From NCBI GenBank assembly GCA_039588295.1, contig JBDHAB010000007.1:10829-74828 (forward strand): DNA of 64,000 nucleotides. The letters are read 5' to 3'. The stretch is from Gemmatimonadota bacterium. Lineage in GTDB: Bacteria > Gemmatimonadota > Gemmatimonadetes > Gemmatimonadales > GWC2-71-9. How positions within the stretch are numbered: the stretch's first letter is position 1; each line of letters opens with the position of its first letter. The notes under the pieces are model-generated. The model was not told the origin of the DNA, did not search any database, and saw nothing but the letters and a program-made list of their open reading frames with translations. Made by a program: the position numbers and the translations under genes. Of this stretch, positions 11,866 to 64,000 are shown in pieces.

Positions 11866-11969
11866 AGACGGTTGCCTCGATCAGTGGGTTCGGTTCGATG
11901 TGACTCCGCGTGGCACTCATGTACACTTGATGAGGGCCCAGGGTGCCTCACAGGCAGCGAGAAAGATAC

Positions 11970-40687: not shown

Positions 40688-42076
<1,389 letters not shown>

Positions 42077-42193
42077 TTATCCCCCGGCCCTCCCCCCGTG
42101 GGTTGACGGGAAGGCCAGTTAGGATTTCCCTGTAGCATACGGTTGGGGGGAGGCGACCTTCCCCCAGCTGCATGCAGCCGTTGGGAGATCCGG

Positions 42194-48310: not shown

Positions 48311-48321
48311 GACCGGTGTCC

Positions 48322-49446
48322 TCAGCCCTGTTGTACGATCGCCTGAAGGGCAACGGCAGAGAGCCGTTGGGCTGCAGCTACCTGTTCGTTCACCACTCTG
48401 CCACCGTAGAGGTACACGCCGGCAGCCAGTCCCGGATTCTCGCGGAGCGCCCGGTCCACACCTTTTTCGGCCAACTCGCTCAACGGAGTGAGGACCACGT
48501 CAGAGAGCGCGCGGGACGCGGTCCGAGCCACGTTGGCGGTCATGTTCGGCACGCAGTAGTGCACCACATCGTGCACCACGAAGGTCGGTTGATCCAGCGT
48601 CGTGGGTCGGCTGGTTTCGACGCATCCTCCCTGATCGATCGAGAGATCGACGATCACACTCCCGGCGCGCATCGAGCTCACCATGTCCTCCGTGATGAGA
48701 AACGGGGCGCGCGCTCCGGGAATCAGCACGGCGCCGATCACGACATCGGCGATCCTGGTGAACTGCTCGAGACGCTCCGTTGACGCGACTTGCGTTACGA
48801 TGTTGCCGGAGATCTGTCGGTTGAGGTTCCGGAGCTTCTGGAGGTCGGCATCGAGGACGATGACGTGGGCTCCAATGGCCAGCGCCCGACGTGCTGCGGT
48901 GCGACCGGCCATACCGGCGCCAAGGATGAGCACCGTGGGTGGAGCGATCCCGGGCACCGAGCCCATGAGGATGCCTCGACCACCGGACTCGTTCTGGAGA
49001 TAGTGCGCCGCCGTGTAGACGGCCATCTCCCCGGCCATCTCGCTGAAGGGCACGAGGATCGAGCGACGCCCTTCGACGTCTTCGATGAGCTCGTAACCGA
49101 TGGCGGTCACCTTGAGCTCGCGCAGCTGCTGCACGATGGGTTGGGGTGCAACGGCCATGTGGAGAAAGCCGCCGATCACCGACCCCGGGCGGACTAACTC
49201 GAGCTCGTCGCTCGACACCAAGCCCACCCGGCAGACCAACTCAGGACGTTTGTGCGCCTCTTCGCTACTGTACACGATTTGTGCGCCGGCCGCCTGGTAC
49301 TCGTGATCTGGAAACCGCGCCGCCAGTCCCGCGCCCTTCTCGACGACAACGGTGTGGCCGCGACTGACGAACCGCCGTACGGCCTGCGGGGTGAGCCCGA
49401 CACGGTGCTCGTGCCGGTGGGTTTCCCGTGGTACACCGATGATCAT
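48322..49446 (-). CDS. ald: Alanine dehydrogenase
   Basis: MIIGVPRETHRHEHRVGLTP N-terminus. VLILGAGMAGRTAARRALAIGAHVIVLD dinucleotide fold. AAGGAGG lies 7 nt before ATG 49446. Confidence 0.85.
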   Translation of the reverse strand: MIIGVPRETHRHEHRVGLTPQAVRRFVSRGHTVVVEKGAGLAARFPDHEYQAAGAQIVYSSEEAHKRPELVCRVGLVSSDELELVRPGSVIGGFLHMAVAPQPIVQQLRELKVTAIGYELIEDVEGRRSILVPFSEMAGEMAVYTAAHYLQNESGGRGILMGSVPGIAPPTVLILGAGMAGRTAARRALAIGAHVIVLDADLQKLRNLNRQISGNIVTQVASTERLEQFTRIADVVIGAVLIPGARAPFLITEDMVSSMRAGSVIVDLSIDQGGCVETSRPTTLDQPTFVVHDVVHYCVPNMTANVARTASRALSDVVLTPLSELAEKGVDRALRENPGLAAGVYLYGGRVVNEQVAAAQRLSAVALQAIVQQG

Positions 49447-49501
49447 CGTCTCGCCTCCTTGACCGACGGGGTCCGGGATCATCTATGCCTGCGTGGGGCG
49501 C

Positions 49502-49514
49502 CGATGCAGCATCG
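49502..49514. promoter_or_regulatory. Perfect 13-bp palindrome CGATGC-A-GCATCG in the ald leader
   Basis: Seen directly in the sequence, 56-68 nt upstream of the ald ATG. Its function (operator?) is not established. Confidence 0.25.
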
Positions 49515-49812
49515 ATGAGCTACTTCGTTGGGAGGCTGCGGCGGGTCGGCCGTGGTGACCAGGTGCGCCGCCAGGGGCCACACCAGAGACCCCAGTCAGC
49601 AGTTGGCCTGAGCGCGCTCGATGCGGGGGGACGCCGGGTGCGGTAGGGAGTCGTGCCGTGGAGCCTGTCCCCACACCTTGAAGGTTGCTCAGCCTCGGTT
49701 GAGGATCGCCGACTTGCCGGTGGCCGATATGCTGATGCTGCCTCACACCCACCCCCTGGACCGCTACCGCCCCGCCCGTGCCGCCCGCAGAGCGGCGCGG
49801 TCACGGTCCTGC

Positions 49813-51246
49813 TCACACCCCCGACGTGCTGCTCTCCTCCGTGAGCGACTTCTGACCCCACGCAAACGCTTCCTCGTTCAGCCCGAGCAGCGCGCAGTCC
49901 TGCTTGAGCGCCTCCCGCATGACGGCGACGAAGCTTTCGCGCGGGAACAACTCGGTGGCAGCCTGCAGCGCACCGAGGGCAACGACGTTCTTGACCATCT
50001 TCTTCCCGAGCTCAACCGCGATCTGGGTGAACGGTACGCCATGCAGCGTGATGCCGGGTAGCGCCGGTACGTTCGCGATCACCGAACTGTCATAGAGGAT
50101 CGTGCCGCCCGGTCGCACGTTCGGACCAAATTTTTCCAGACTCGGCGCGTTGAACACGACCAAGATATCCGGCTCCGGACATGCCGGTGAGAGCACCTCG
50201 TCGGTGGCGACACGCACATCGGCATAGGACGTCCCACCCCGGGATTCCGGACCGTAGCTCGGGATGTAGGTCGAGTCGAATCCCTCGTTGATGGCGGCGC
50301 GAGTCGTCAGCAGCGCGATCGTCTGTGCCCCATCTCCACCGGCACCGGCAAACTTGATCGCGATGTCTTCCTCATCGATATGAGAGGGAAACCCGGTTCC
50401 GAACCGACTCGGTGGCTCCGTCGTGCTCCCAATGACCGCTGCGACCTCATCCGGCTCGAAGCTGGGTCGTCCCAGATCAAACCACGGCTCGACCTCCACG
50501 TCCTTCTTCACGCCCAGCGGGAAGATGGGCACCATGCACTCTTTGACCCACTGCTCGGTCTCCAGTGGGGTCAGGCGTAGATGCGTCGGGCATTCCGACA
50601 GCACCTCGACAAAGGAGAGCCCGCGCCGCTCGACTTGGAGACGGACGGCCTTCTTGATCGCCTTCTTCGCACGCACACGCTGCTTGTTGTCGAACAGCGC
50701 GACGCGCTCGACGTAGACTGGGCCGTCCATCTGGCCAACCATTTCGGCCATCTTGAGCGGCTCCCCGGTCAAGCGGTCGCGACCGGCCGGCGTCGTCGTC
50801 GTACGCTGTTCCCGCAGCGTGGTGGGGGCCATCTGCCCCCCGGTCATGCCGTAGATCGCATTGTTGATGAAGATGAAGGTCATCGGGAGACCCATCTGCA
50901 CCGCCTGGATGATCTCGGCGAGGCCGATCGCGGCCAGGTCCCCATCCCCTTGATAACTGACCACCACGGCGTCGGGGTTGGCCATCTTGTGGCCGATCGC
51001 GACGGCTGGAGCCCGTCCGTGCGCCGCCTGCGTGTTTCCGACATCGAGGTAGTAGTACATGAAGACCGCGCACCCCACGGGCGAAACCGCAACGGTCCGG
51101 TCTTGTACATCCAATTCGGCGATCGACTCCGCCAGATACTTGTGTGCCAACCCGTGACCGCATCCGGCGCAGTAATGCGTGGTGAGCCCTTTGAGGCCTT
51201 GACCCTGCGCATGGCGCGCGAAGCGCTCGTAGAAGACGCTAGACAT
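49813..51246 (-). CDS. 2-oxoacid:ferredoxin oxidoreductase, fused beta (TPP) and gamma subunits
   Basis: Beta part: YCAGCGHG, SYQGDGD and NNAIYGMTGGQ. Gamma part: AGAGGDGAQT and YGPESRGG. ATG 51246 overlaps the upstream gene's stop by 8 nt. Confidence 0.85.
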   Translation of the reverse strand: MSSVFYERFARHAQGQGLKGLTTHYCAGCGHGLAHKYLAESIAELDVQDRTVAVSPVGCAVFMYYYLDVGNTQAAHGRAPAVAIGHKMANPDAVVVSYQGDGDLAAIGLAEIIQAVQMGLPMTFIFINNAIYGMTGGQMAPTTLREQRTTTTPAGRDRLTGEPLKMAEMVGQMDGPVYVERVALFDNKQRVRAKKAIKKAVRLQVERRGLSFVEVLSECPTHLRLTPLETEQWVKECMVPIFPLGVKKDVEVEPWFDLGRPSFEPDEVAAVIGSTTEPPSRFGTGFPSHIDEEDIAIKFAGAGGDGAQTIALLTTRAAINEGFDSTYIPSYGPESRGGTSYADVRVATDEVLSPACPEPDILVVFNAPSLEKFGPNVRPGGTILYDSSVIANVPALPGITLHGVPFTQIAVELGKKMVKNVVALGALQAATELFPRESFVAVMREALKQDCALLGLNEEAFAWGQKSLTEESSTSGV

Positions 51247-52657
51247 GGCCGGCCTCCGCGAGGGCGGTGATTTTGTCCACGATTTCTTGCTGTGAGGGCA
51301 ACACACCGCCCATCCGTCGGACGTGGTGAATCGGTGGCCCGTCCCTGACGTCGGCGTGGCTCAGCGCGAGCCGAAGCTCGTCTTCGAGTTGGCCGGCTCC
51401 AGCCTCGACGACGACGACGCCCCGCACTCCGTCCAGCAGGGGGAGCAGCCGGGTGATTGGGAATGGCCAGAGCGTGATCGGGCGGAACAATCCAGCCTTG
51501 ATTCCCCCGTGTCGGAGCGCCCGTATGGCGCCTTTCGCCATCCGCGCCGGCGTGTTGCAGGCCACGACGATCCACTCGGCATCGTCGCAGTGGAACTCGT
51601 CCGCACGCTGTTCACGCTCAGTCATCCGCTCGTACTTTGCGTTCAGCTCGGCGTTCCGGGCCTCGAGCCGGGCTTCGTTGAGGTCAATCGACGAGTTCAA
51701 CATCCCACGGTGAGCAGCGTCTCCGTACACCGCCCAACCCGGAAGTCCGGGCCGTGTGAGTTCTCGGGGGAGCGTGACGCGACCCGTCATCTGACCCATG
51801 TACCCGTCGCAGGCGAGGACCACGGGGTTGCGGTACTCGAACGCCAGGTCAAACGCGCGCATCGTCAAATCCAGCATCTCCTGGGGCGTGGATGGGGCAA
51901 AGACCAGTGCGTGCGTGTTGCCGTGGCCGAGCCCGCGGCACACCAGTTTGATGTCGCCCTGCTCGGGCGCGATGTTGCCGAGCCCGGGACCGCCGCGCAT
52001 GACGTTGATGAAGACACCCGGGATCTCGGCGCCGATCATGTAGGAAATCCCCTCTAACATGAGGCTGAACCCCGGGGACGACGTGAACGTCATGCATCGC
52101 ATTCCGGCGCCCCCACAGCCATACATCATGTTGACCGTGGCGACTTCGCTGACCGCCTGCACGAATATGCCATCGAGCTGCGGCAGCAGCTTGGCCATGA
52201 GTTCGGCGCCCTCGGTGGACGGGGTGATGGGGTAGCCGAAGAAGTGCCGGCAGCCCGCGAGCAGCGCGCCAATGGCGGCTGCGTGGTTGCCCTTGAGCAC
52301 CATGGGCTCGAGATGGGACAACGCGATGGTCGAATCGGGAACGGATTCCGGTTGGGTTCCGACGGTCTCGGTTCGATCGAAGTACGTGTACGGGTCAGAC
52401 ACCACCATGTCGATTCCGTCCAGCTCGGGCGGTGTTGCCATGAGGCCGTGCGGTTCGGGGCATGCCGAGATACAGAGCCCGCACCCGTTGCACACCTCTA
52501 AGTCCACGGTAACCGGCGTGAAGCCGGTAACGGGATCGATTTCCGTCCCGAGCTCGATGCAGTGCTTAGGGCACGCCTCGATGCACCTGCCGCACGCTTT
52601 GCAGAGGTGGGGAAAGAGGAACGGTTTTGGCCGGCTCTTGACCTTCGCAGTCACCAT
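51239..52657 (-). CDS. 2-oxoacid:ferredoxin oxidoreductase, fused delta (2x[4Fe-4S]) and alpha subunits
   Basis: N-terminal CKACGRCIEACP and CNGCGLCISACP ferredoxin motifs, followed by an alpha-subunit body (GNHAAAIGALLAGCRHFFGYPITPSTE). Confidence 0.85.
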   Translation of the reverse strand: MVTAKVKSRPKPFLFPHLCKACGRCIEACPKHCIELGTEIDPVTGFTPVTVDLEVCNGCGLCISACPEPHGLMATPPELDGIDMVVSDPYTYFDRTETVGTQPESVPDSTIALSHLEPMVLKGNHAAAIGALLAGCRHFFGYPITPSTEGAELMAKLLPQLDGIFVQAVSEVATVNMMYGCGGAGMRCMTFTSSPGFSLMLEGISYMIGAEIPGVFINVMRGGPGLGNIAPEQGDIKLVCRGLGHGNTHALVFAPSTPQEMLDLTMRAFDLAFEYRNPVVLACDGYMGQMTGRVTLPRELTRPGLPGWAVYGDAAHRGMLNSSIDLNEARLEARNAELNAKYERMTEREQRADEFHCDDAEWIVVACNTPARMAKGAIRALRHGGIKAGLFRPITLWPFPITRLLPLLDGVRGVVVVEAGAGQLEDELRLALSHADVRDGPPIHHVRRMGGVLPSQQEIVDKITALAEAGHV

Positions 52658-52661
52658 AGTA

Positions 52662-54923
52662 TCACGTTCCCTGTCTCAGGCACCGAAGTCGTCGTTCGCA
52701 GTACGTGCCGAAGATCCGCAGCGCGCGATCCGCCGTCCGGAATGTGGGTATGCCGTGCTGTTCGAGCAGCGTTGCCATCGGCACGTAGCGTGGCCCAGCG
52801 TCCACCACCGCAACCCAGGGCTTGGTGGTCGTCTGCGCGGTGGCAATCAGGCGACGCACCACCGATTGTGGATCGTCAATATCCTCACCGTGTGTGGCAT
52901 CTCGGGCGAGGGTGTTGAGCGCGCCGGTCAGTGGCACACACCCCACGATCCCAACGTCAACGTTCTCATCGCACAACACAGTCGTCATCGCTTCCTCGTA
53001 GCCCGCGTCATCCATGATCGGGGTCAGATCGAGGGGGTTCCGCGCCTCCACGACGTCCTGAAGCCGTCTGCCTGTGAGCAGTGCGCCCAACCGTCGCACG
53101 GTGTCGCCAGTGAACGGTGCGAGCTGGAACGGACCGAGGTTGTCTGCCATGGTCACGCACTCAAACCCGGCATTCGACACGGCACCAAGTCTGGAGCCGC
53201 GAACGACTCTGCGTCCAAGATAGCAGAACACCTTGACCAGATCATCAAAATCGGCCAGCGAGTCCGCAACGACCACCCCGGCTTCGGTCGCGAGCTCACG
53301 GCAGACCGCATAATCACCCGCGACGGCGGCGGTATGTGACGCCGTTGCTCCCGCACCTGCGGGAGTGCGGCCGGCGCGATACAGCACCACGTCACGGCCG
53401 CTCGATGCGATCTCCGCCGCGGCGTCGAGCCACCGGTGTCCGTCACCGGGCTGGAACCCTTCGACATAGCACGCGAACACGTCGATCTCGGGATCGTCTT
53501 TCAGATACGTCAGGTAATCACTGACGGTCAAATCGGTCTGGTTGCCAACGGAGATCGAGAACCGCGGGTTGAGCCCCAGGAACCTACTGGCACGTGCCAC
53601 GGCAAAAGCGCCGCTCTGAGAGATTAGGGCGAGCGGCGTCGCTGCGCCACGTTTCGGCGGGAGCTTGTACTCCGGAATGAACGTGGTGTCGTACCGTCCC
53701 GGGATCGAGCGGACCCCCAGGCAATTCCCCCCGTTCAGGACGGGTCCTCCCCATTCGGTCGGGCGCGACGCGTGCAGCGCCTCGAGAATGTCATGCTGGA
53801 GCTGCGCCGTGCCACCCTTCTCACCCAGGCCGCCAGGAATCACGATGAGGCTCTCGGCCTTGCGGCCGGCCACGACTTCCCGAACCGCGTCGGGCACCTG
53901 CGAAGCGGCTACACTCAGGACGAGGAGATCGACGCACCCGGGCAATGCCGTAATGCTGGCAAAGCATCGAACCCCGTCGATTTCCCCGGCGTCGGGCTTG
54001 ACGATTGCCATGCGTTCGGCGGGGAAACCCTCCCGGAGCATGTTCCGGAGGATGATGCGGCCGGGATTGAGCCGCTCAGACACGCCGACGATGGCGGCGG
54101 ACTTCGGCTCGAGCAGCGCCTTGAGCTTGTGGATGGGCCGGTCCGGTCGCCGCCCCGGTTCACCGGCTCGGAGCGTCACCAGCACGTCGAGGGCGGTGGG
54201 GCCGTGCTCGCCGGGAACCAGCGGGTTGATCTCGAACTCGCCGATCTGCGTTGCGGCGTCACTGCGCGCGAACGCCAACGCCGTCTCGACCAGCGAAACC
54301 AGAACCGGCATGTCGAACGCCACGCCCCCACCCCCACCCCGCTCCATGCCGGCCGCGAGCCGTGCGAATGCCTTCGATGCGAGCGATCGCTCGATCTGAT
54401 TCCTCGATCTCGTGTGCGCACCGAAGACCGCGGCAGCGCGACCCGCCTGCAACTCGGCCGACAGCAACTCGGCGTGCATCCCCCCAGGCCCGATGGTCAC
54501 GACCGGACCGAAGTCGTCGGTCCATCGCATGCCGAGCAGGAGCTCGCCTCCCAGCGCCCGATCGTAGTCGACATGGGCGTTCAGTGCGAACCCCACCACC
54601 GCCTGCTCGGCGAGGCTCGATTCCATGGTGCGGACGGCCTCACGCACCGTTCCCGGGTGGTTGCGCACGATCGCGACCGCGCCGACTTCGGTCTTGTGCA
54701 CGATACGGGCTGAAACGGCCTTGATGACGACGAGGTCCGTGCCGAGCTGGCGGAGATCACCGTCGTCGACGTCGGCACTCGAGCGCACCAACACGGCGGC
54801 GGGCACCTCGATGCCAAGACACTCGACGATCCGGGCCGCTTCCGGTTGCAGCAGCACGCGCCGGTGCTCCGCCCGCGCGGCGTCGAGCACCTGTGCGATG
54901 TTGTCGGACGTCGCTGTGACCAC
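52662..54923 (-). CDS. ADP-forming acyl-CoA synthetase (NDP-forming acetate--CoA ligase family), single polypeptide
   Basis: N-terminal ATP-grasp segment (LLQPEAARIVECLGIEVP...VVIKAVSARIVHKTEVGAV), followed by the CoA-binding/ligase segments (LLEPKSAAIVGVSER.NPGR..., ISQSGAF, SVGNQ). It ends 4 nt before the OFOR gene. Confidence 0.85.
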   Translation of the reverse strand: MVTATSDNIAQVLDAARAEHRRVLLQPEAARIVECLGIEVPAAVLVRSSADVDDGDLRQLGTDLVVIKAVSARIVHKTEVGAVAIVRNHPGTVREAVRTMESSLAEQAVVGFALNAHVDYDRALGGELLLGMRWTDDFGPVVTIGPGGMHAELLSAELQAGRAAAVFGAHTRSRNQIERSLASKAFARLAAGMERGGGGGVAFDMPVLVSLVETALAFARSDAATQIGEFEINPLVPGEHGPTALDVLVTLRAGEPGRRPDRPIHKLKALLEPKSAAIVGVSERLNPGRIILRNMLREGFPAERMAIVKPDAGEIDGVRCFASITALPGCVDLLVLSVAASQVPDAVREVVAGRKAESLIVIPGGLGEKGGTAQLQHDILEALHASRPTEWGGPVLNGGNCLGVRSIPGRYDTTFIPEYKLPPKRGAATPLALISQSGAFAVARASRFLGLNPRFSISVGNQTDLTVSDYLTYLKDDPEIDVFACYVEGFQPGDGHRWLDAAAEIASSGRDVVLYRAGRTPAGAGATASHTAAVAGDYAVCRELATEAGVVVADSLADFDDLVKVFCYLGRRVVRGSRLGAVSNAGFECVTMADNLGPFQLAPFTGDTVRRLGALLTGRRLQDVVEARNPLDLTPIMDDAGYEEAMTTVLCDENVDVGIVGCVPLTGALNTLARDATHGEDIDDPQSVVRRLIATAQTTTKPWVAVVDAGPRYVPMATLLEQHGIPTFRTADRALRIFGTYCERRLRCLRQGT

Positions 54924-55061: not shown

Positions 55062-56096
55062 TCACTCCCCGTGCGGGCGTCTTCCCGTTGCGTACGCCCG
55101 GGCCGCCTCAGCACGCGCTGCGGCGTCCCCAAAGATCTTCTCTCCATCGAACCGGCCGTTCTCGATGAAGATCTCCGAGATATCGAACCCCGCGGTGATG
55201 CTCCCGGCGAGATGAACGCCCGGCACGGACGTCTCGAGGGTCCCAGGGTCCAGCTCGGGTCGGCCCGTGGCCGCATCGTAGGCGACCCCGACCCGGTCGA
55301 AGAGGGAAAGATCCGGACGAAATCCGGTGAGGGCATACACGCGGTCGGCAGGCAACCGCTCGTGGCTCCCGTCGGCCCGCTCGATGTGCACGCATTGTCC
55401 GTCGATGGCGAGCACGTGGGCTCCCAACCGTGCGGCGATTTCGCCCGCTTCGATCCGGTTCAGGATGTCGGGGCGCAGCCAGTACTTCACCGAGCGGGAG
55501 AAGGCGGTCCCACGGTAGACCAGAGTCACGCGGGCTCCGGCCCGAAACAGCTGCAGGGCGGCTTCGACGGCGGAATTCCGACCGCCGATGACGACGACAT
55601 CGAGGCCATAGCTCAGGTGTGCCTCGTCGAAGTAATGGCGGACGTGTGGAGGATCCTCGCCGCTCACGCCCAAGAGGTTGGGCTGATCGAAATACCCTGT
55701 TGCCAAGACCATGCGCCCGCAGGTCACCTGCTCCGTGCTCCTGCCGGTGTCGACGATGCACCGGATCGCCCGTTCGATGGGTTCCGCCTCGACGAGGCGC
55801 GTGTAGGTTTGCACGCGCAAGCCCTCGGCCCGCGCGACACCACGGTAGTACTTGAGCGCCTCCTCGCGCGTGGGCTTGGCGCCGGCGCACACGAGGGGGT
55901 GACCCCCAATCTCGAGCCGCTCCGGCGTGGTGAAGAACACCATGCCGACGGGGTAGTGGACGATGGAGTTGGCCACTGCTCCGGCATCGATCACGAGGGG
56001 ATCGAACCCGCGCCGGCGTGCTGAGATCGCGCACGCGAGTCCGATCGGACCGGCGCCCACGATCAGAACGTCTTCGCTGCGTGTGGGGGGCTTCAT
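55062..56096 (-). CDS. ypdA: YpdA-family FAD/NAD(P)H disulfide reductase (putative bacillithiol disulfide reductase)
   Basis: DVLIVGAGPIGLACAISARRRGFDPLVID, then SIVHYPVGMVFFTTPE; a second dinucleotide fold VVVIGGRNSAVEAA. Length ~344 aa. Confidence 0.75.
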   Translation of the reverse strand: MKPPTRSEDVLIVGAGPIGLACAISARRRGFDPLVIDAGAVANSIVHYPVGMVFFTTPERLEIGGHPLVCAGAKPTREEALKYYRGVARAEGLRVQTYTRLVEAEPIERAIRCIVDTGRSTEQVTCGRMVLATGYFDQPNLLGVSGEDPPHVRHYFDEAHLSYGLDVVVIGGRNSAVEAALQLFRAGARVTLVYRGTAFSRSVKYWLRPDILNRIEAGEIAARLGAHVLAIDGQCVHIERADGSHERLPADRVYALTGFRPDLSLFDRVGVAYDAATGRPELDPGTLETSVPGVHLAGSITAGFDISEIFIENGRFDGEKIFGDAAARAEAARAYATGRRPHGE

Positions 56097-56186
56097 TTCA
56101 GTGTCGACGTTGGTACTGTTCCTAGGGATCGGAGCTGAGGGAGCCTCCTCGTTGGCAAATGTAACGCCCTTGCTGCTGGGTTGGCG

Positions 56187-57314
56187 ATGAATCGGACCGT
56201 CTTGGTGCTAGGAGGGTATGGCGGCGCGGGCCGTCGGATCACGGAGCTATTGGCGCGGGAGTCCGGGGTGCGGGTCGTGGTGGGTGGGCGGCAACTGGGC
56301 CCGGCGCAGGGATGGGCGGCGGAGCTCAACCGCGAGCTTCGAAGTGAGCGAGTCACCGCCGTCCTAGCGGAAGCTTCCAACCCGAGCCTGCTCAGGAAGG
56401 CGTTGGCCGACGTCGACCTCGTCGTGGTTGCGTCGAGCACGGCTGCACACGTTGCCACGGTGGCCCAAGCGGCGATCGAGGCCGAGGTGGATTACCTGGA
56501 TATCCAATACTCCACGTCGAAGCTACGTGTGCTGGACTCGATGAGGGCTGAGATCGAGCGGCGAGGTCGCTGCTTCATTACCGACGGCGGCTTCCACCCG
56601 GGACTGCCTGCGGTTCTCATCCGCTTCGCCGCCGGCTTCCTGGACCGCCTGCAGCGGGCGAACGTGGCGGCTGTGGCGAGAATCGATTGGCGGAATCGCA
56701 CGGTTGCAGCATCGACGAGCACGGAGTTTGCGGAGGAACTGCGGCATTACGAGCCGACGGTGCTCAAGCGAGGCACATGGGCCCGCTCCCGTTGGTGGGA
56801 ACGCAAGCGATTCGCGTTTGGCAAGCCGTTCGGGACGTTGTCCACGGTGCCGATGCAACTCGGGGAGATGCGGAACCTCCCGCATCAGTTTCCCATGCTG
56901 GTCGATGCGGGATTCTACGTTGCCGGACTCAATTGGTTTGTCGACTATCTTGCGATGCCGTTCGGCATGCTGGCGCAGCGTCTGGCGGGTGATCGCGCCA
57001 CGCCGGCGGTCGGGAAGCTGATCGGGTGGGGGCTGCGAACCTTCACAGTGCCCCCCTACGGGACCGTGGCAGTCGTCGAGGCGAGCGGGTGGAAGAAGGG
57101 GAGGTTGGTGGCAGTCCGAGGTCGGATCGCTCACGAGGACGGTTACGAGCTGACCGCGATCACGGTTGTGGGGTGTCTGCTCCAATACCTGGACGGTTCC
57201 GCAAGACGACCGGGGCTGTGGCATCAGGCGCACCTCGTCGATCCGCGCCGGCTCGTGACGGACTTGGAGCGCCTCGGCGCCACGGTCGAGTACGATCTGG
57301 AGGTCGAGACATGA
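56187..57314 (+). CDS. Saccharopine-dehydrogenase NADP-binding-domain protein (function unknown)
   Basis: MNRTVLVLGGYGGAGRRI Rossmann start. The remainder is not assignable by eye. ATG 56187 lies within the listed TTG-started ORF. Confidence 0.6.
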   Translation: MNRTVLVLGGYGGAGRRITELLARESGVRVVVGGRQLGPAQGWAAELNRELRSERVTAVLAEASNPSLLRKALADVDLVVVASSTAAHVATVAQAAIEAEVDYLDIQYSTSKLRVLDSMRAEIERRGRCFITDGGFHPGLPAVLIRFAAGFLDRLQRANVAAVARIDWRNRTVAASTSTEFAEELRHYEPTVLKRGTWARSRWWERKRFAFGKPFGTLSTVPMQLGEMRNLPHQFPMLVDAGFYVAGLNWFVDYLAMPFGMLAQRLAGDRATPAVGKLIGWGLRTFTVPPYGTVAVVEASGWKKGRLVAVRGRIAHEDGYELTAITVVGCLLQYLDGSARRPGLWHQAHLVDPRRLVTDLERLGATVEYDLEVET

Positions 57315-57354
57315 ACGCTCTACGGTGGGCGGGCATCATGGGAGAGAGACCGGT

Positions 57355-58701
57355 ATGACGCAGCGCGCTGTCATTTTGGGTGCGGCAGGACGTGACTTTC
57401 ACAATTTCAACGTCTTCTTCAGGGGCAACCCCGAATATCACGTCGTCGCGTTCACTGCGACACAGATTCCGGATATCGACGGACGCCGCTATCCGCCGGA
57501 GCTTGCCGGCGAGGGGTATCCAGACGGCGTACCGATCGAGGCCGAGCAGGATCTCAGCCGACTGATTCGCGACAAGAGCGTAGACGTCGCCGTGTTTGCC
57601 TATAGCGATGTTTCGCACGAGCACGTGATGCACGTCGGTGCTCGGGCCATGGCGGCTGGGGCGAGCTTCCTGCTCCTGGGCCCACGGCAGACCATGCTCA
57701 CGGCGAAGGTTCCGGTCATCTCGGTCTGTGCCGCGCGGACGGGAGCCGGAAAGAGCCAGACGAGTCGACGAGTAGCGGCCATCTTGCGGAGCAAGGGGAA
57801 GCGGATCGTCGTGGTGCGCCATCCGATGCCGTATGGCGACTTGACCCGGCAGGCCGTCCAGCGGTTTGCGAGCTTCGAAGATCTCGATGCACACCGCGTC
57901 ACCATTGAAGAGCGAGAGGAGTACGAGCCGCACATTCGCGCGGGCTGCGTGGTGTATGCGGGGGTTGATTACGAGCGGATTCTGCAGCGGGCCGAGCAAG
58001 AGGCGGACGTGATCATTTGGGACGGCGGCAACAACGACCTGCCCTTCTACAGGCCCGATCTCCACATTGTGGTGGTCGACCCCCATCGGGCGGACCACGC
58101 GAAGCGGTACCACCCAGGGGAAACGAATGTCCGGATGGCGGACGTCATCGTCGTGAACAAGGTGGGAACGGCCGGTTTGGCGGAAGTGGAGCAGGCACGG
58201 AGCGTAGCCATGGATCTCAACCCCGACGCGGTAGTCATCGAGGCGGCAAGCCCGATCTTGGTCGAGGAGCCAGCGTATATCCGTGGCAAGCGGGTACTGG
58301 TCATCGAAGACGGACCGACACTCACCCACGGTGAGATGGCGTACGGGGCGGGCTGGGTGGCTGCTCGCCGCTTCGGAGCGGCGGAGATCGTTGACCCGCG
58401 GCCCCATGCCGTCGGGTCGATTCGGGAGACGTTCGAGCGGTACCCCACGACAGGCGCGGTACTGCCCGCTATGGGATACGGTACGCAGCAGGTGGATGAG
58501 TTGGCTCGAACCATTGCGGCGGTCCCTGCCGATCTCGTGTTGATTGCCACGCCAATCGATCTGCGCCATCTCATTGATTTCGACAAGCCGACGCTTCGCG
58601 TACGTTATGAGCTTCAGGAGATCGGACGTCCGACTCTGGAGGACGTCCTCTCGGGCTTCGATGACGGAGCGGGCTCGGTCGAAGGAGTGGCGGCTCCGTA
58701 G
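57355..58701 (+). CDS. COG2403-type P-loop protein (cyclic 2,3-diphosphoglycerate synthetase-like family)
   Basis: AVILGAAGRDFHNFNVFFR N-terminus, Walker-A-like ARTGAGKS, and a later WDGGNND motif. Size ~448 aa. The family call is from memory of archaeal cDPG synthetase homologues. Confidence 0.6.
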   Translation: MTQRAVILGAAGRDFHNFNVFFRGNPEYHVVAFTATQIPDIDGRRYPPELAGEGYPDGVPIEAEQDLSRLIRDKSVDVAVFAYSDVSHEHVMHVGARAMAAGASFLLLGPRQTMLTAKVPVISVCAARTGAGKSQTSRRVAAILRSKGKRIVVVRHPMPYGDLTRQAVQRFASFEDLDAHRVTIEEREEYEPHIRAGCVVYAGVDYERILQRAEQEADVIIWDGGNNDLPFYRPDLHIVVVDPHRADHAKRYHPGETNVRMADVIVVNKVGTAGLAEVEQARSVAMDLNPDAVVIEAASPILVEEPAYIRGKRVLVIEDGPTLTHGEMAYGAGWVAARRFGAAEIVDPRPHAVGSIRETFERYPTTGAVLPAMGYGTQQVDELARTIAAVPADLVLIATPIDLRHLIDFDKPTLRVRYELQEIGRPTLEDVLSGFDDGAGSVEGVAAP

Positions 58702-58726
58702 CGCTGCAGTCGAGAGGAGATCCGCT

Positions 58727-59926
58727 GTGACAGCGACGAACGGGACAATCGGACTTCTGACCGGCGGTGGGGATGTTCCCGGTCTCAATCCTGCCATTCG
58801 CGCCATTACGATTCGCGCGCTGCGGGAGGGCTACCGCGTGCTGGGAATTCGCCGAGGCTGGGCTGGCCTCATCGATCTCGTTCCAGAGCGCGACGCTGAT
58901 AACAGCATGCATGTGCAGATGCTGACGGAGGACGTCGTCAATCGTGCGGGTCGGACGGGAGGGACGTTCCTCCACACATCGCGCACGCGGCCGAGCCGGC
59001 TTCCCAAGCCGGTGGTGCCCGAACACCTCCGCGACCGGTACACGGATGAGATCAACGATGTGACACCGTCGGTGTTGAGGAACCTCGAGTTCCTTGGAAT
59101 CGACTATCTCGTGCCGATCGGTGGCGACGATACGCTGAGCTACGGCCTGCGCCTGCACCAGGAGGGGGTGAAGGTCGTGGCGGTCCCCAAGACCATGGAC
59201 AATGACGTTCCCGGTACGGACTACTGCATCGGGTTCAGCACGTGCGTGACCCGCACGATTGAGATGACCCACAGCCTGCGGACCTCCGCGGGGTCACACG
59301 AGCGGTTCCTCGTCATCGAGGTGTTTGGGCGGTACGCGGGGTATACGGCGCTGCTGCCTACCATGGCGGGCGCGGCGGATCGGTGCCTGATTCCCGAACA
59401 CCGCTTCCAACTAGAGCATCTCTGCGAGCTGCTCAGCTACGACCGCGGACGAAACCCGAGCAAGTACGCAGTGGTGCTCGTATCGGAGGGAGCCCGCATG
59501 ACGGACGATGACGAAATGTCCTTCGAAGGTCAGGAACAGGATCAGTATGGTCATCGCAAGCTCGGGGGGATCGGCGATAAGGTCGCGTCGCGCCTCAAGC
59601 TTTGCTCACCGAGGTACAATCAGGGTCGGCGCGTGAACATCGTGAACCAGCGTCTTGGCTACCTGGTGCGGTGTGGCGATCCGGATGCGATGGACTCGAT
59701 CGTGCCCATGGCCTTCGGCAACCTCGCGCTCGACCTGGTACTCGGAGGCACCTCCGGCCGCTTGGTGAGCCTGCGCAACGGTGTGTACGACAGTGTGCCG
59801 ATCGACGTGGTGACGGGCCGCAAGAAGGTCATCGACGTCGACAAGTACTACAATGTCGAGCGTCTCCGACCCAACTACAAGACCTTCATCCGACAACCCC
59901 TGTTCATCATGACGAGCGATGTCTGA
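58727..59926 (+). CDS. 6-phosphofructokinase, probably PPi-dependent
   Basis: GLLTGGGDVPGLNPAIR, PIGGDDTLS and VPKTMDNDV motifs. GTG 58727 has GAGAGGAG upstream. The Asp in GGDD and the Lys in PKTxDND are the residues associated with PPi use. Confidence 0.8.
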   Translation: MTATNGTIGLLTGGGDVPGLNPAIRAITIRALREGYRVLGIRRGWAGLIDLVPERDADNSMHVQMLTEDVVNRAGRTGGTFLHTSRTRPSRLPKPVVPEHLRDRYTDEINDVTPSVLRNLEFLGIDYLVPIGGDDTLSYGLRLHQEGVKVVAVPKTMDNDVPGTDYCIGFSTCVTRTIEMTHSLRTSAGSHERFLVIEVFGRYAGYTALLPTMAGAADRCLIPEHRFQLEHLCELLSYDRGRNPSKYAVVLVSEGARMTDDDEMSFEGQEQDQYGHRKLGGIGDKVASRLKLCSPRYNQGRRVNIVNQRLGYLVRCGDPDAMDSIVPMAFGNLALDLVLGGTSGRLVSLRNGVYDSVPIDVVTGRKKVIDVDKYYNVERLRPNYKTFIRQPLFIMTSDV

Positions 59927-60473
59927 ATCGCTGCGCGACGCGGTCGAGGAGCTCTGGCCCGAACTCGAGTGGATTGAGTCGAAGGAGCTCCGCGAGCAAG
60001 TCACACAGACGTGGGTCCGGGCGTTCGAGCAGAGTCCGCTCGCGCCCGCCGACCTCAACCGGATTCCGTTCACCCTTCTGGTGCCGAACTGTCCGGCCAC
60101 CTTCATGGAGCACAAGCGCTGCGTCGTCCACATTGCACGGCGAGCGGCGGAATCGATGCACGAGTTCCTTGGGAGCGCGCTCCACATCGACCGGGACACA
60201 GTGATTGCCGGAGCGATTCTGGCCGATGTCGGCAAGTTGTTGGAATACGAGAAACGCGATGGAGAGACGCGACAGAGCGCCCGCGGTCAGAGTCTCCGCC
60301 ATCCGTTTACGGGTGTGGCCCTTGCCATGGCATGCCATGTGCCGGACGCGGTCTGTCACATCATTGCCACGCATGCCGCCGAGGGTGACTTGGTGCAGCG
60401 GAGCACCGAGGCCTACATCGTCCATCATGCGGATTTCATGAGCTACTTGCCGTTCAAGAACCTCGCCGGCTGA
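59919..60473 (+). CDS. HD-domain phosphohydrolase-like protein
   Basis: H...HD-type pattern (HKRCVVH...ILADVGKL...H.A.H.D). ATG overlaps the PFK stop by 8 nt (ATGTCTGA). Confidence 0.65.
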   Translation: MSESLRDAVEELWPELEWIESKELREQVTQTWVRAFEQSPLAPADLNRIPFTLLVPNCPATFMEHKRCVVHIARRAAESMHEFLGSALHIDRDTVIAGAILADVGKLLEYEKRDGETRQSARGQSLRHPFTGVALAMACHVPDAVCHIIATHAAEGDLVQRSTEAYIVHHADFMSYLPFKNLAG

Positions 60474-60511: not shown

Positions 60512-61891
60512 ATGTCACAGTCGATCACCGCCACCATGGCCCAGTGGGCCGCCGACCTCGGGTTCGACGATCTCGGAGCCGAAGCGATTCACGAATCGCG
60601 GCGCTACCTGCTCGACTCGCTGGGCTGTGCCTTTGGGGGATATCGCCAGGAGGACGCCCGCATCGCCCTGGATGTGCTGGGCGAGATCGGCGGGTCCGGA
60701 CTGGCGACGGTCCTCGGGAGCGGCGCGCGAACCGATCCCGTGTCGGCGTCGCTGGCGAATGCGCTCATGGTCCGGGTGATGGACTACAACGACATCTACT
60801 GGCAGCAGGACCCATCACATCCGTCGGATATCATCCCGGCCGCGATCGCCTGTGGCGAACGTGCCGGTCGGACCGGTAAGGACCTGATCGTCGGCATCGT
60901 CCTCGGGCACGAATTCGAGATGCGGCTGTGCGAGGCGGCGTTTCCGGGCATCCGGGAACGCGGATGGCATCACGCGACGCTCACGGCCTTCGTCTCGCCG
61001 ATCGTGGCGGGTCGAATGCTCGGTCTGTCGTGGGATCGCATTCAGCATGCGATCGGGATCTCGGCGTCGCGACACGCGACGTTCGGTGCAGTGACCGCTG
61101 GCAAGCTCACGATGATGAAGAACACGGTGGATCCGTTGGCGACGCAGAGCGGCGTACTCGCGGCGCTGTTGGCCGAACGCGGCTATACGGGTCCGGAGCA
61201 CGTGGTGGATGGCAAGGAAGGACTGGTCCACTGCTTCGGGCCGGAGTGGAAGCTCGAGATTCTCACAGAGGGTTTGGGGCAGTCGTGGCGCATCGAGCGC
61301 TGCGGGATGAAAGCATTTCCGACCGAGGCGTTGACGCACGCCCCGATCTCCGCGGTGCTTGCCATCGTGCAGGAGCACGATCTGGCACCCGAGCAGGTGG
61401 CGACGGTGCGTATCCGCTCGCTTGCGCGCGCGGCCGATATCCTGGCAGACCCGAGCAAGTACGACCCGCGAACAAAGGAGACCGCGGACCACAGTCTCCC
61501 GTATGTCGTCGCGGCTGCCCTGGTCGACCGTCAAGTCACGCCAGCCCAGTTTGAGTCCGACCGTATCATGGACCCGAAGATTCGTGAGCAGCTCCGCAAG
61601 GTCGAAGTGGTGGCCGACCCCGAGATCGAGAAGGTGTTTCCGGAATTGCAGCGGGTAATTGTGCAGATCGACACGACGGACGGTCGTGCGTTGACGCAAA
61701 CGTTGGACTACCCGAAGGGTGATCCGCGAAACCCACTCACCGACCATGAGATCGAAGAGAAGTTCGACGCGCTCGCGGCGCCGGTGCTCTCGCAGCGTGC
61801 GAGGGACCGGCTGAAGGCCGCCGTCTGGGAGCTGGAGTCCATGGACTCGATTTCAGACCTCATGGCGCTGTGCCGGGCCGACGTAACGTGA
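60512..61891 (+). CDS. MmgE/PrpD-family protein (2-methylcitrate dehydratase-like)
   Basis: Typical N-terminus (A.WAADL.FDDL...A....LLDSLGCAFGG) with D.ND and HPS.. motifs. 459 aa. Confidence 0.85.
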   Translation: MSQSITATMAQWAADLGFDDLGAEAIHESRRYLLDSLGCAFGGYRQEDARIALDVLGEIGGSGLATVLGSGARTDPVSASLANALMVRVMDYNDIYWQQDPSHPSDIIPAAIACGERAGRTGKDLIVGIVLGHEFEMRLCEAAFPGIRERGWHHATLTAFVSPIVAGRMLGLSWDRIQHAIGISASRHATFGAVTAGKLTMMKNTVDPLATQSGVLAALLAERGYTGPEHVVDGKEGLVHCFGPEWKLEILTEGLGQSWRIERCGMKAFPTEALTHAPISAVLAIVQEHDLAPEQVATVRIRSLARAADILADPSKYDPRTKETADHSLPYVVAAALVDRQVTPAQFESDRIMDPKIREQLRKVEVVADPEIEKVFPELQRVIVQIDTTDGRALTQTLDYPKGDPRNPLTDHEIEEKFDALAAPVLSQRARDRLKAAVWELESMDSISDLMALCRADVT

Positions 61892-61957
61892 TCCCGCAGT
61901 GGCGGGGCGGAGGCGATGGCCGTGGCCGCGGTATCGCCTCCCCTGGGTGAGGGCATT

Positions 61958-63901
61958 ATGGGACAGACCGTCGTTGAGAAGATCGCCCAGCAGCACATGA
62001 CAGCCGGTCCCGAGCGGTCGATCTGCACGGGAGACGTCGTGTCGCTTCGGCCTCGGTACGTGATGACCCATGACAACACGGCCGCGGTGATGAAGAAGTT
62101 CCAATCCATTGGTGCGACGCGGATTTGGGATCCTCGGCAGCCGGTCTTCGCACTCGATCACGACATCCAGAACACCTCGGAGACGAATCTCGCCAAGTAT
62201 CGGGAGATCGAGGCGTTCGCGCGCGCGCACGGCGTCGACTTCTACCCGGCCGGGACGGGCATCGGACACCAGATCGTCGTGGCTCGTGGGTATGCGGTAC
62301 CGGGCGCGCTCGTCGTGGCGTCGGATTCCCATTCCAACATGTACGGCGCGGTTGGGGCCCTCGGGACACCGGTCGTCAGGACGGACGCTGCCGCCATCTG
62401 GGCGACCGGCGAATTCTGGTGGCAGATTCCCAGAACGGTACAGGTCGTGTTGCACGGTCACTTGCGCGATGGCGTGACAGGGAAGGATGTCATCATTACG
62501 CTGTGTGGACTCTACAACGACGAGGTACTGAACGCGGCGGTCGAGTTTGCAGGGCCGGCGATCGCGGGCCTCAGCATGGACGCGCGCATGACGATCGCCA
62601 ACATGACCACCGAGTGGGGTGCGTTGGTCGGCTGGTTTCCAGTGGACGATGTGACCCTTCGGTACCTCGCTCGCCGCAAGGAGCTGCTGGACGCGCAAGG
62701 GGAGACACGGTATACGGACGAAGACCTGGCGCAGTGGCGCGAAGCGCCGCCAGCCCCCGATCCGGAAGCGGCGTACGCGGGGCGCATCGACCTGAACTTG
62801 TCCGACGTCAGTCCGCACGCGTCGGGCCCTGACAGTGTGCACGTGATGCGTTCCGTCGCGGATATCGAACAGGATCGGGTCGTGATACAGAAGGCCTATC
62901 TGGTCTCGTGTGTCAACAGTCGCGTCGAAGATCTGGAAGCCGCCGCGCGTGTGATGCGCGGGAAGCGCGTCGCCGATGGGGTCGAGTTCTATGTCTCGGC
63001 GGCGAGCCGCGAGGTGGAGGAAGCCGCGGCGGAATCCGATGCGTGGGGCGCGTTGTTGGAAGCGGGGGCGAGGCCGCTGCCCCCCGGCTGCGGCCCGTGT
63101 ATCGGCTTGGGTGCCGGGCTGCTCGAGTCGGGTGAGGTCGGCATCTCCGCCACGAACCGCAACTTCAAGGGTCGCATGGGGTCGAGGGACGCCCGGTGCT
63201 ATCTGGCCAGCCCGGAGGTGGTGGCCGCCTCAGCGGTCGCGGGATACATCACCGGGCCCCGTGCGTCCGACGGACGCCAACCGGAGCGCCGGTATGCCGA
63301 GCCGGCGACCGCAGCCTCCGCAGCCGAAGCGGTAAAGATCCAGGAGGGATTCCCGGAGCGAGTCTCCGGGCGGCTCGTCTTCGTGCCGCAGGACAGCCTC
63401 AATACCGACGGGATCTACGGCAAGGACTACACGTATCGCGAGGGCATGACACCGGGGGAAATGGCAGGTGTGGTCATGGAGAACTACGATCCCACGTTCT
63501 CCGAGCGGGTGCGGCCGGGAGACATCCTGGTGGGTGGCTGGAACTTCGGCACAGGGTCGTCGCGCGAACAGGCCGTGACGGCGCTCCAGGCGAAAGGGCT
63601 TCCGCTGGTGATCGCGGGAAGTTTCTCGCAGACGTACCTGCGCAACGCGTACAACAACGGGTATCCCTGCATCGCGTGCGACGCGTTGGTGAGACGGTTG
63701 AAGGAGTTACTCACCGCTGCCGTCACCGCGCGCGAGCTCACCGTGATTCCAGGTGACGAACTGCTCGTAGATTTCGCGCGGAGCACGTTGCGCTACCGCG
63801 ATGAGGTATTCGCGTTTCCACCGTTGGGGGCCGTACCGCAATCGCTGGTCATCGCGGGTGGGATCGAGAATCAAATTCGGAACAAGCTGGGAGTGGGTTG
63901 A
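61958..63901 (+). CDS. Aconitase-superfamily dehydratase with fused large and small (swivel) domains (homoaconitase/isopropylmalate isomerase-like)
   Basis: MGQTVVEKI...DHD, ASDSHSNMYG, and Fe-S cluster Cys ligands in SCVNSR and PGCGPCIG. C-terminal swivel part has GWNFGTGSSREQA. Confidence 0.85.
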   Translation: MGQTVVEKIAQQHMTAGPERSICTGDVVSLRPRYVMTHDNTAAVMKKFQSIGATRIWDPRQPVFALDHDIQNTSETNLAKYREIEAFARAHGVDFYPAGTGIGHQIVVARGYAVPGALVVASDSHSNMYGAVGALGTPVVRTDAAAIWATGEFWWQIPRTVQVVLHGHLRDGVTGKDVIITLCGLYNDEVLNAAVEFAGPAIAGLSMDARMTIANMTTEWGALVGWFPVDDVTLRYLARRKELLDAQGETRYTDEDLAQWREAPPAPDPEAAYAGRIDLNLSDVSPHASGPDSVHVMRSVADIEQDRVVIQKAYLVSCVNSRVEDLEAAARVMRGKRVADGVEFYVSAASREVEEAAAESDAWGALLEAGARPLPPGCGPCIGLGAGLLESGEVGISATNRNFKGRMGSRDARCYLASPEVVAASAVAGYITGPRASDGRQPERRYAEPATAASAAEAVKIQEGFPERVSGRLVFVPQDSLNTDGIYGKDYTYREGMTPGEMAGVVMENYDPTFSERVRPGDILVGGWNFGTGSSREQAVTALQAKGLPLVIAGSFSQTYLRNAYNNGYPCIACDALVRRLKELLTAAVTARELTVIPGDELLVDFARSTLRYRDEVFAFPPLGAVPQSLVIAGGIENQIRNKLGVG

Positions 63902-63949
63902 CCGTCGTAGCCGCTCTCGAGCGCTGAAGGTTGGGAGGAAGAGGCTGAA

Positions 63950-64000
63950 ATGGGGAAACACACCGTCGTGACGATGCCGGGTGATGGGATCGGGGCCGTC
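63950..64000 (+). CDS. Start of an isocitrate/isopropylmalate/homoisocitrate dehydrogenase-family gene (truncated by the window end)
   Basis: MGKHTVVTMPGDGIGAV matches the ..LPGDGIGPEV N-terminal signature. GGGAGG SD upstream. Only 17 codons are visible. Confidence 0.5.
   Translation, partial: MGKHTVVTMPGDGIGAV

Follow-up and report, generated by a model that had tools for sequence, protein, structure and literature searches.

We examined a 64,000-nucleotide stretch of DNA from a Gemmatimonadota bacterium (contig JBDHAB010000007.1, positions 10,829 to 74,828; hereafter the window), whose 3′ end holds four co-directional genes on the + strand. These encode an atypical HD-fold protein of 184 aa (59919..60473), an MmgE/PrpD-superfamily enzyme of 459 aa (60512..61891), a fused aconitase-superfamily hydratase of 661 aa (61916..63901) and, cut by the window end, an Iso_dh-family dehydrogenase of which the first 17 codons (51 nt; 63950..64000) can be read. 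A first-pass annotation, made from the sequence alone, had taken the last three as a functional unit comprising a PrpD/MmgE enzyme, a homoaconitase-type hydratase and an isopropylmalate-dehydrogenase-family enzyme. Pfam and NCBIfam scores confirm the coordinates and family calls of the first two, while for the third the family assignment stands through its orthologues and not through the short piece present in the window.

The arrangement is operon-like, because the gaps between the genes are short (24–48 nt) and a scan of the window found no terminator-like site between them on the + strand. A promoter and terminator scan gave nothing exceeding shuffled expectation, and an Rfam scan of the window and three related loci at the gathering threshold returned no riboswitch. 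The G+C content of the region is ~64%, and third-position G+C (GC3) of all open reading frames (ORFs) is 0.78–0.80. Close relatives of the encoded proteins (82–85% identity) carry Gemmatimonadota or Gemmatimonadales labels, and an identical HD protein is found on a 7.8-kb metagenome contig that ends within the PrpD-like gene.

A scan with the hydratase, taking one genome per species, yielded 80 loci with full-length homologues at 51–76% identity. Their labels include Gemmatimonadota, Acidobacteriota (Terriglobia and Thermoanaerobaculia), Verrucomicrobiota, Planctomycetota, Ignavibacteriota and Calditrichota, as well as Marinimicrobia/Fidelibacterota, Zixibacteria, Nitrospirota, Chloroflexota and others. 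Gene content 3′ of the window was taken from these orthologous loci and not from the source contig. In the two closest loci (L001 and L031) and in the complete chromosomes CP070722.1 (Gemmatimonadota) and CP070677.1, the hydratase gene is followed by genes for a 395-aa Iso_dh protein, a 406–419-aa CitD-CitE fusion and CitF, in agreement with the earlier expectation that the operon continues beyond the window. Comparison of six reference proteins with the 80 loci by tblastn showed the collinear order HDIG-PrpD-hydratase-dehydrogenase-CitDE-CitF in Gemmatimonadota and Terriglobia, and a rearranged yet clustered module in Ignavibacteria, Melioribacter and Marinimicrobia.

In 51 loci the sequence extends 6 kb or more to either side of the hydratase gene. 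Among these, the HD-like gene is clustered with the hydratase gene in 40, the dehydrogenase in 40, the PrpD-like gene in 34 and CitDE with CitF in 29; all five partners occur together in 26. The trio thus does behave as a functional unit. All-against-all clustering of ~1150 ORFs revealed no other recurrent family besides the six of the module, and the flanks, inspected in at least 15 loci, consist of unrelated housekeeping genes. The window trio therefore appears to be the visible part of an uncharacterised six-gene operon found across many soil and sediment phyla. Full-text literature searches returned no published description of the cluster, and the supplementary tables of the Melioribacter and Ignavibacterium papers hold no locus tags for aconitase or isocitrate dehydrogenase (ICDH). 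Module proteins of Terriglobia (L002–L034) and Gemmatimonadota (L031/L001) are 61–78% identical (HD 76–78%, PrpD-like ~76%, CitF ~76%), a value unusually high between phyla, well above what vertical descent would lead one to expect, that suggests either lateral transfer of the whole cluster among soil bacteria or strong constraint.

Across phyla, no partner accompanies the hydratase more constantly than the HD-like protein, the gene of which lies on the same strand in 38 loci and persists where other genes replace CitDE and CitF (see below). The protein matches the HDIG model TIGR00277 at 29.8 bits, and a Pfam search gave no match. In the HD dyad, Ala stands in for the His ('ILADVGK'), and A102-D103 is invariant among 23 homologues. 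An AlphaFold2 model (pLDDT 87) retrieved generic HD-fold matches only with Foldseek (TM ≤0.59), and a PDB sequence search likewise found only the generic HD fold.

Catalytic families of the module

The hydratase is a single chain resembling LeuC plus LeuD, with Pfam matches to Aconitase (345 bits) and Aconitase_C. It passes the NCBIfam model for fungal Lys4-type homoaconitase, TIGR00139, at 719.7 against a cut-off of 529.9, and we accordingly assign it, by sequence, to the fungal Lys4/homoaconitase type, in line with the homoaconitase/LeuCD-type call of the first-pass annotation. A start at 61958 instead of 61916 agrees better with its orthologues. The Fe-S and catalytic motifs are present (SCVNSR at 331, GCGPC at 391, NRNFKGR at 414 and GSSREQ at 547), and the best solved relative is the large subunit of Methanocaldococcus (M.) jannaschii homoaconitase (248 bits). 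In the specificity loop, 'YTYR(D/E)(D/G)', a conserved Arg ('YTYRDD') is followed by acidic residues, where methanogen homoaconitase has 'YLRT' and isopropylmalate isomerase 'YLVY'; the Arg would suit a tricarboxylate substrate. Homoaconitases of the Lys4 type carry out only the half-reaction between homoaconitate and homoisocitrate (PMC3556520), as the first-pass annotation had stated for the fungal and Thermus enzymes.

The dehydrogenase stub (MGKHTVVTMPGDGIGAV) is preceded by a GGAGG-like ribosome-binding site and carries a PGDGIG motif. It agrees with the N-termini of the 395-aa Iso_dh orthologues at 11–14 of 17 positions in the closer and 7–10 of 17 in the more distant cases. By itself the stub is thin evidence, and the gene was identified through the 395-aa proteins encoded after the hydratase in the orthologous loci. 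These score 253–260 bits with Pfam Iso_dh and keep equivalents of the catalytic Arg, Tyr, Lys and Asp residues R119, R129, R153, Y160, K230, D283, D307 and D311. The substrate loop reads 'Y(F/Y)SPIV' in all 44 orthologues, and 119 of 120 fungal LYS12 proteins, together with Schizosaccharomyces (S.) pombe homoisocitrate dehydrogenase (HICDH; 3ty3), have 'YSSPIV' in this position; ICDH has 'RSLNV', and the loops of LeuB and Thermus HICDH are likewise unlike that of the module enzyme. Of the Ser113/Asn115 pair with which ICDH binds the gamma-carboxylate, Asn115 is replaced by Ile in 44 of 44 orthologues, with the Ser113 equivalent retained. The NADP signature of E. coli NADP-ICDH (equivalents of K344, Y345, Y391 and R395) and its 'AGIEW' insertion are both present, and an insertion specific to this family, with a conserved basic residue, precedes the substrate loop. 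Among the comparators, BLAST ranks Thermus (T.) thermophilus HICDH first (38%). The equivalogs for homoisocitrate dehydrogenases (AksF, AksF2 and iso/homoisocitrate dehydrogenase) were not reached, the best scores being 257–274 against a cut-off of 540 bits, nor was that for NADP-ICDH (TIGR00183; 180–185 against 567 bits). The sequence thus presents as a mosaic, in which an NADP-ICDH-like scaffold carries a homoisocitrate-dehydrogenase-like substrate loop.

Membership of the hydratase in the LeuCD superfamily and of the dehydrogenase in the LeuB superfamily would fit a 2-oxoacid pathway of the branched-chain or citramalate type, acting between pyruvate and 2-oxobutyrate or on leucine-type substrates. 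Citramalate lyase is organised like citrate lyase, and Ignavibacterium album, which carries CitF and a CitE-CitD fusion, is without ilv and leu genes. Against such a pathway, the hydratase loop with its Arg and acidic residues resembles that of homoaconitase and not those of isopropylmalate or citramalate isomerases, the LeuB, LeuC and LeuD equivalog cut-offs are all missed widely, and tblastn of the loci found neither leuA nor cimA near the module. We regard this pathway as very improbable.

The lyase genes of the related loci resemble those of citrate lyase. CitF, CitE and CitD share 38%, 39% and 39% identity with their E. coli counterparts, and in the CitD-CitE fusion the prosthetic-group Ser is kept in at least 80% of orthologues. 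CitF scores 490 against the citrate-lyase equivalog cut-off of 501, and the CitE domain 263–272 bits against 443 for citrate lyase beta; the latter domain also matches RipC, the lyase of itaconate degradation, at 149–156 bits. CitDE and CitF are missing in 11 loci from Verrucomicrobiota, Planctomycetota and related groups. Directly upstream of the module in these same loci, on the same strand, lie genes of three kinds. The first encodes an extended protein resembling succinyl-CoA-synthetase beta, whose match to the citrate-binding domain of ATP-citrate lyase is weak and sub-threshold, the second an alpha-like subunit, and the third a citryl-CoA lyase, separate or fused, with a score above the NF004869 cut-off (264 against 212 bits). 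In CP070722.1 a gene for an ADP-forming acetyl-CoA synthetase directly follows CitF, and a homologue lies at 52662–54923 of the window. The replacement of CitDEF by citryl-CoA synthetase and lyase homologues in loci of the Planctomycetota–Verrucomicrobiota–Chlamydiota (PVC) type fixes the nature of the lyase step: each lineage appears to couple the trio to a C2 cleavage or condensation of the citrate-lyase or ATP-citrate-lyase type. In L047, L049, L055 and L056 (Verrucomicrobiota/Nitrospirota), the citryl-CoA-lyase fusion is separated from the HD gene by a gene for a DUF6958 protein of ~93–99 aa, and L047, L048 and L059 (Verrucomicrobiota) have upstream a divergent pair of thiolase and acyl-CoA dehydrogenase genes.

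The PrpD-like protein scores 232.4 bits with MmgE_PrpD_N and 161.2 bits with MmgE_PrpD_C (gathering cut-off 32.1). It nonetheless fails all PrpD equivalogs (NF042438, 99 against 950; NF006943, 82 against 575; TIGR02330, 60.5 against 458 bits) and is only 23% identical to E. coli PrpD; the nearest solved structures are iminodisuccinate (IDS) epimerase (142 bits) and IRG1/cis-aconitate decarboxylase (CAD; 112–125 bits). PMC12290011 lists the residues for 1,4-dicarboxylate coordination and the catalytic His; on this basis the carboxylate-binding and catalytic core Asp/His/His/Lys/Lys is kept, and the motifs D(Y/F)ND, HPSD, GWHH, MMK and MKAFP find their aligned counterparts in E. coli PrpD, IDS epimerase and Bacillus (B.) subtilis IRG1. 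Domains and core are thus common to the module protein and the characterised MmgE/PrpD members (2-methylcitrate dehydratase, cis-aconitate decarboxylase, iminodisuccinate epimerase and methylsuccinate isomerase), from which it is set apart by its genomic partners, by the segment 'IYW(K/Q)xDPSHPSD', conserved in and unique to its clade, and by an Arg at the position of the epimerases' second-base Tyr. Epimerases and isomerases of this superfamily use a two-base mechanism that involves this second catalytic Tyr (PMC12290011). Because Arg replaces it, the sequence points to a one-base dehydratase or decarboxylase, and an epimerase or isomerase role was rejected on this ground. By score the protein falls in no characterised group, and it appears to belong to an uncharacterised MmgE/PrpD clade. 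In JGI annotation the module's PrpD-like proteins are named '2-methylcitrate dehydratase'; this automatic name and that of 'citrate lyase', given to other parts of the module (PMC3362086), are probably misleading in these genomes.

Two alternatives raised in the first-pass annotation can be weighed here. Pairing of PrpD with an aconitase-family enzyme is the hallmark of the methylcitrate cycle (PrpC, PrpD, aconitase, PrpB), and like that cycle the module combines a si-type carbon–carbon enzyme and an MmgE/PrpD enzyme with a second half-reaction by the aconitase family; beta-oxidation genes also adjoin the module in some loci. A variant cycle for propionyl-CoA is nevertheless the least probable of the readings considered, since the PrpD-like protein misses every PrpD equivalog and is closer to IDS epimerase and CAD, and tblastn with E. 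coli PrpB and PrpC returned only citryl-CoA-lyase halves in PVC loci and weak PrpB-like matches ~10 kb away in 3 loci. The module moreover ends in an oxidative decarboxylation and not in a lyase reaction, and no beta-decarboxylating dehydrogenase can oxidise 2-methylisocitrate, the hydroxyl group of which is tertiary.

An aconitate/itaconate route would require aconitate isomerase or cis-aconitate decarboxylase activity of the PrpD-like protein and a lyase acting on citramalate- or itaconate-derived thioesters. That the PrpD-like protein is closer to IRG1/CAD and IDS epimerase than to PrpD, and the RipC match of the CitE domain, would fit, and an IDS-epimerase-like protein of Bacillus thuringiensis reportedly acts as an aconitate isomerase. 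The known isomerases, however, require the second-base Tyr that is absent here, the CitE domain scores far higher with citrate lyase beta than with RipC, neither itaconyl-CoA hydratase nor itaconate CoA-transferase was found in the cluster, and the conserved dehydrogenase would be left without a role. We give this route very little credence.

A putative homocitrate-series shunt and its rivals

We propose, with about even confidence, that the six-gene module encodes a homocitrate-series shunt with a si-face lyase, which would interconvert 2-oxoadipate + CO2 + NADPH and 2-oxoglutarate + acetate or acetyl-CoA; its substrates, stereochemistry and direction are read here from sequence and genomic context. 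In the first step, a citrate-lyase-type (si-face) carbon–carbon enzyme would make or cleave a homocitrate-type tertiary alcohol. The PrpD-like enzyme would then dehydrate this alcohol, or form it by hydration, in the acetyl-derived arm, which the aconitase family does not reach, and the Lys4-type hydratase would catalyse only the half-reaction between cis-homoaconitate and homoisocitrate. The dehydrogenase would complete the sequence by NADP-linked oxidative decarboxylation or reductive carboxylation, so that, on balance, a 2-oxo-dicarboxylate would be lengthened or shortened by one carbon. The homocitrate series is pointed to because the hydratase passes TIGR00139 and the dehydrogenase has the 'SPIV' loop of fungal LYS12 and, as its best BLAST relative, Thermus HICDH.

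The presence of a PrpD-type enzyme can be rationalised stereochemically. Citrate lyase, ATP-citrate lyase and enzymes of the citrate-synthase fold act on the pro-S arm (si-face type), and the aconitase family acts on the other arm. If a si-type enzyme uses an asymmetric 2-oxoacid such as 2-oxoglutarate, the acetyl-derived arm would lie out of reach of an aconitase-type enzyme, and a second dehydratase would be needed. 2-Methylcitrate, the product of a si-type synthase, poses the same elimination problem, which PrpD solves (Brock et al., as discussed in PMC3556520). The module would be chemically coherent in this form, because a si-type lyase, a PrpD-type dehydratase, a Lys4-type hydratase and an HICDH-like dehydrogenase fit together. 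The earlier suggestion that the PrpD-like protein is the partner of a hydration-only homoaconitase is therefore reasonable for the module, and the protein looks to be of the one-base type. In fungi and Thermus, the 'missing' homocitrate dehydratase has already been assigned to ordinary aconitase (PMC3556520).

Aminoadipate elongation in fungi and Thermus passes through the same order of intermediates (tertiary alcohol, cis-alkene, secondary alcohol, 2-oxoacid). Its Lys4 and Lys12 are matched in the module by the hydratase and by the dehydrogenase loop, and dehydration and hydration are proposed to lie on two separate enzymes, as in fungi. The module differs in that CitD-E/CitF, or citryl-CoA synthetase and lyase, stand in place of a DRE-TIM (re-face) homocitrate synthase, the proposed first dehydratase belongs to the PrpD superfamily and not to the aconitases, the cofactor site of the dehydrogenase resembles that of NADP-ICDH, extra insertions occur in this enzyme, and an HD-like protein is added, while the downstream lysine genes are not present. 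Known HICDHs use NAD, whereas the module enzyme looks NADP-dependent.

Literal lysine biosynthesis by the alpha-aminoadipate route, with the PrpD-like protein as homocitrate dehydratase, is for these reasons improbable in our assessment, even though I. album has been reported to lack lysC, asd and dapABD (PMC3362086). No LeuA/homocitrate-synthase homologue was found at E ≤ 1e-5 by tblastn of ~84 loci and the window, and ORF clustering and flank inspection showed no conserved aminotransferase or lysW/X/Z/Y/J/K-type gene near the module. In an acidobacterium, a lysine riboswitch on asd-lysC indicates the diaminopimelate route (PMC5584792). The first-pass annotation had pointed to two saccharopine-dehydrogenase-fold genes as consistent with an aminoadipate link, without taking them as proof, and both exist: that at 11943–13175 is full-length (Sacchrp_dh_NADP and Sacchrp_dh_C, 150 bits), and that at 56181–57314 has the NADP-binding domain only. 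Such genes are not conserved with the module, however, being syntenic in only a few Gemmatimonadota, and the former lies 48 kb away and could equally well encode an enzyme of the carboxynorspermidine or homospermidine type. In their classical form, the readings as aminoadipate, methylcitrate or leucine pathway thus all fail, because homocitrate synthase, lysW/X, prpB/C and leuA are not found nearby. What the downstream region of the orthologous loci holds instead, CitD-CitE and CitF or, outside it in PVC loci, citryl-CoA synthetase and lyase, had not been foreseen.

The main rival to the homocitrate-series shunt, which we consider unlikely though far from negligible, is that the same enzymes work on citrate, as a second arm linking citrate, isocitrate and 2-oxoglutarate that is joined to citrate cleavage, with the PrpD-like protein as citrate dehydratase. 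Forward, this would be a reductive route resembling the reverse tricarboxylic acid (TCA) cycle, from glutamate or 2-oxoglutarate to acetyl-CoA and oxaloacetate; in reverse, it would be an ATP-conserving synthesis of citrate. The lyase genes are homologous to those of reductive-TCA citrate cleavage and of the CitDEF system of citrate fermenters, the reaction order is the same, CitF nearly reaches the citrate-lyase cut-off and the lyase of PVC loci scores above that for citryl-CoA lyase. The dehydrogenase resembles E. coli ICDH in its insertion, in its NADP residues and in keeping a Ser113 equivalent, and the NF006943 description treats E. coli PrpD as belonging to a bifunctional methylcitrate/aconitate hydratase family. 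The window also encodes two glutamate dehydrogenases, a 2-oxoacid:ferredoxin oxidoreductase, an ADP-forming acyl-CoA synthetase and a CoA-transferase, and the CitE-CitD fusion and CitF of I. album were noted in 2012 as possibly closing an unconventional reverse TCA cycle (PMC3362086).

Several features speak against citrate as the substrate. The module lyase clusters with a hydratase of the Lys4 and not the aconitase type, a PrpD-like enzyme, and a dehydrogenase in which the Asn of ICDH has given way to Ile and the loop is that of fungal HICDH. Citrate being symmetric, a PrpD-type step is chemically unnecessary, although it would be needed if the Lys4-type hydratase cannot dehydrate citrate. 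Genes of citrate fermentation (citC, citG, citX, transporter and oxaloacetate decarboxylase) are not near the module, and its carriers are mostly heterotrophs that already hold citrate synthase and aconitase. Of 326 Gemmatimonadota genomes, 83% have an annotated citrate synthase and 73% an annotated aconitase (PMC9426454), so that a citrate module would be redundant in most of them and prone to futile cycling. On the same annotations, the idea of the module as the sole entry to the TCA cycle was rejected.

Other observations weigh against the homocitrate-series shunt. CitF, CitE and the citryl-CoA lyase look very citrate-like, and their sequences yielded nothing in favour of homocitrate; for the stereochemistry, (S)-homocitrate is presumed solely by analogy. 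The ICDH-like scaffold of the dehydrogenase, with AGIEW, the NADP residues and the Ser113 equivalent, makes the loop motif suggestive and not decisive, and T. thermophilus HICDH also accepts isocitrate. No tblastn match to citC, citG or citX was obtained within 10 kb in any locus (L001–L082 and L087), which leaves activation of the acyl-carrier-protein domain, by loading of the phosphoribosyl-dephospho-CoA group, unexplained. Lysine-catabolic or aminoadipate genes are not conserved beside the module, and the HD-like protein has no place in the scheme. Reductive carboxylation of 2-oxoadipate would, by our own estimate, be uphill at ambient CO2.

As to the direction of the homocitrate-series shunt, we lean slightly to cleavage, in which 2-oxoadipate from lysine or tryptophan would yield 2-oxoglutarate and an acetyl unit, over biosynthesis. 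This preference draws on the NADP signature, on the direction of the lyases, which like citryl-CoA synthetase are known in the cleaving direction, on acetyl-CoA-using neighbours in several loci (thiolase and HMG-CoA synthase), and on the lack of downstream lysine genes. Thermodynamics, again by our own estimate, slightly favours elongation.

More tentatively, and with less confidence than in the homocitrate-series reading as such, we suggest that a near-equilibrium si-face homocitrate shunt may be widespread in Gemmatimonadota, Acidobacteriota and the PVC and Fibrobacterota–Chlorobiota–Bacteroidota (FCB) groups. It would be either a new route for breakdown of 2-oxoadipate to 2-oxoglutarate and acetyl-CoA or an ATP-conserving elongation of 2-oxoacids, and would include the first PrpD-family homocitrate dehydratase, a new clade of NADP-dependent homoisocitrate dehydrogenases and an HD-fold protein in a new role. 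The TCA cycle and the biosynthesis of leucine, lysine and coenzyme B share a synthase-isomerase-dehydrogenase theme, to which a si-face lyase with a PrpD-type dehydratase would, if the proposal is correct, add a fourth enzyme solution. It would also assign functions to large uncharacterised clades in four enzyme superfamilies, explain citrate-lyase and citryl-CoA-lyase genes of heterotrophs that genome papers have read as hints of a reverse TCA cycle, and offer a testable 2-oxoadipate route in abundant, poorly studied phyla of soils and sediments.

Further genes in the window

Upstream of the module, on the same strand, a gene with a saccharopine-dehydrogenase NADP domain, a gene for a 458-aa protein and a phosphofructokinase (PFK)-family gene occupy 56181–59926, an order also seen in the Gemmatimonadota loci L031 and L082. 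The 458-aa protein has no family match beyond a marginal one to CobW. As listed, the PFK-family ORF overlaps the preceding gene by 158 nt, and its real start is probably at ~58727–58772; the PFK and HD genes overlap by 8 nt.

On the − strand, 47012–54923 holds a gene block typical of amino-acid or 2-oxoacid fermentation, with a butyryl-CoA:acetate CoA-transferase-like gene, an AlaDH/PNT-family gene, a 2-oxoacid:ferredoxin oxidoreductase encoded by two genes, and an ADP-forming acyl-CoA synthetase. The AlaDH/PNT-family gene scores slightly below the alanine dehydrogenase cut-off (368.6 against 391.85) and could be of the lysine-ketoglutarate-reductase type. The synthetase, an ADP-forming acyl/acetyl-CoA synthetase of 753 aa (52662..54923, − strand) with ATP-grasp_5, CoA_binding_2 and Succ_CoA_lig domains, lies outside the conserved core and is a possible partner that would give CitDEF an ATP-citrate-lyase-type step.

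Tandem glutamate dehydrogenase genes of different types are found at 39256–40638, encoding an archaeal/GdhB-like enzyme, and 40700–42076, the product of which passes the NADP-specific equivalog (742 against 536 bits). At 42143–45211 lies a gene for a 1022-aa protein of unusual architecture, with a PPDK_N (phosphoenolpyruvate-utilising) ATP-binding domain and a weak, sub-threshold match to a response-regulator receiver domain. Finally, a YpdA-family putative bacillithiol disulfide reductase encoded at 55062–56096 (− strand) passes its model (378 against 340 bits), which hints at the use of bacillithiol by this Gemmatimonadota organism.

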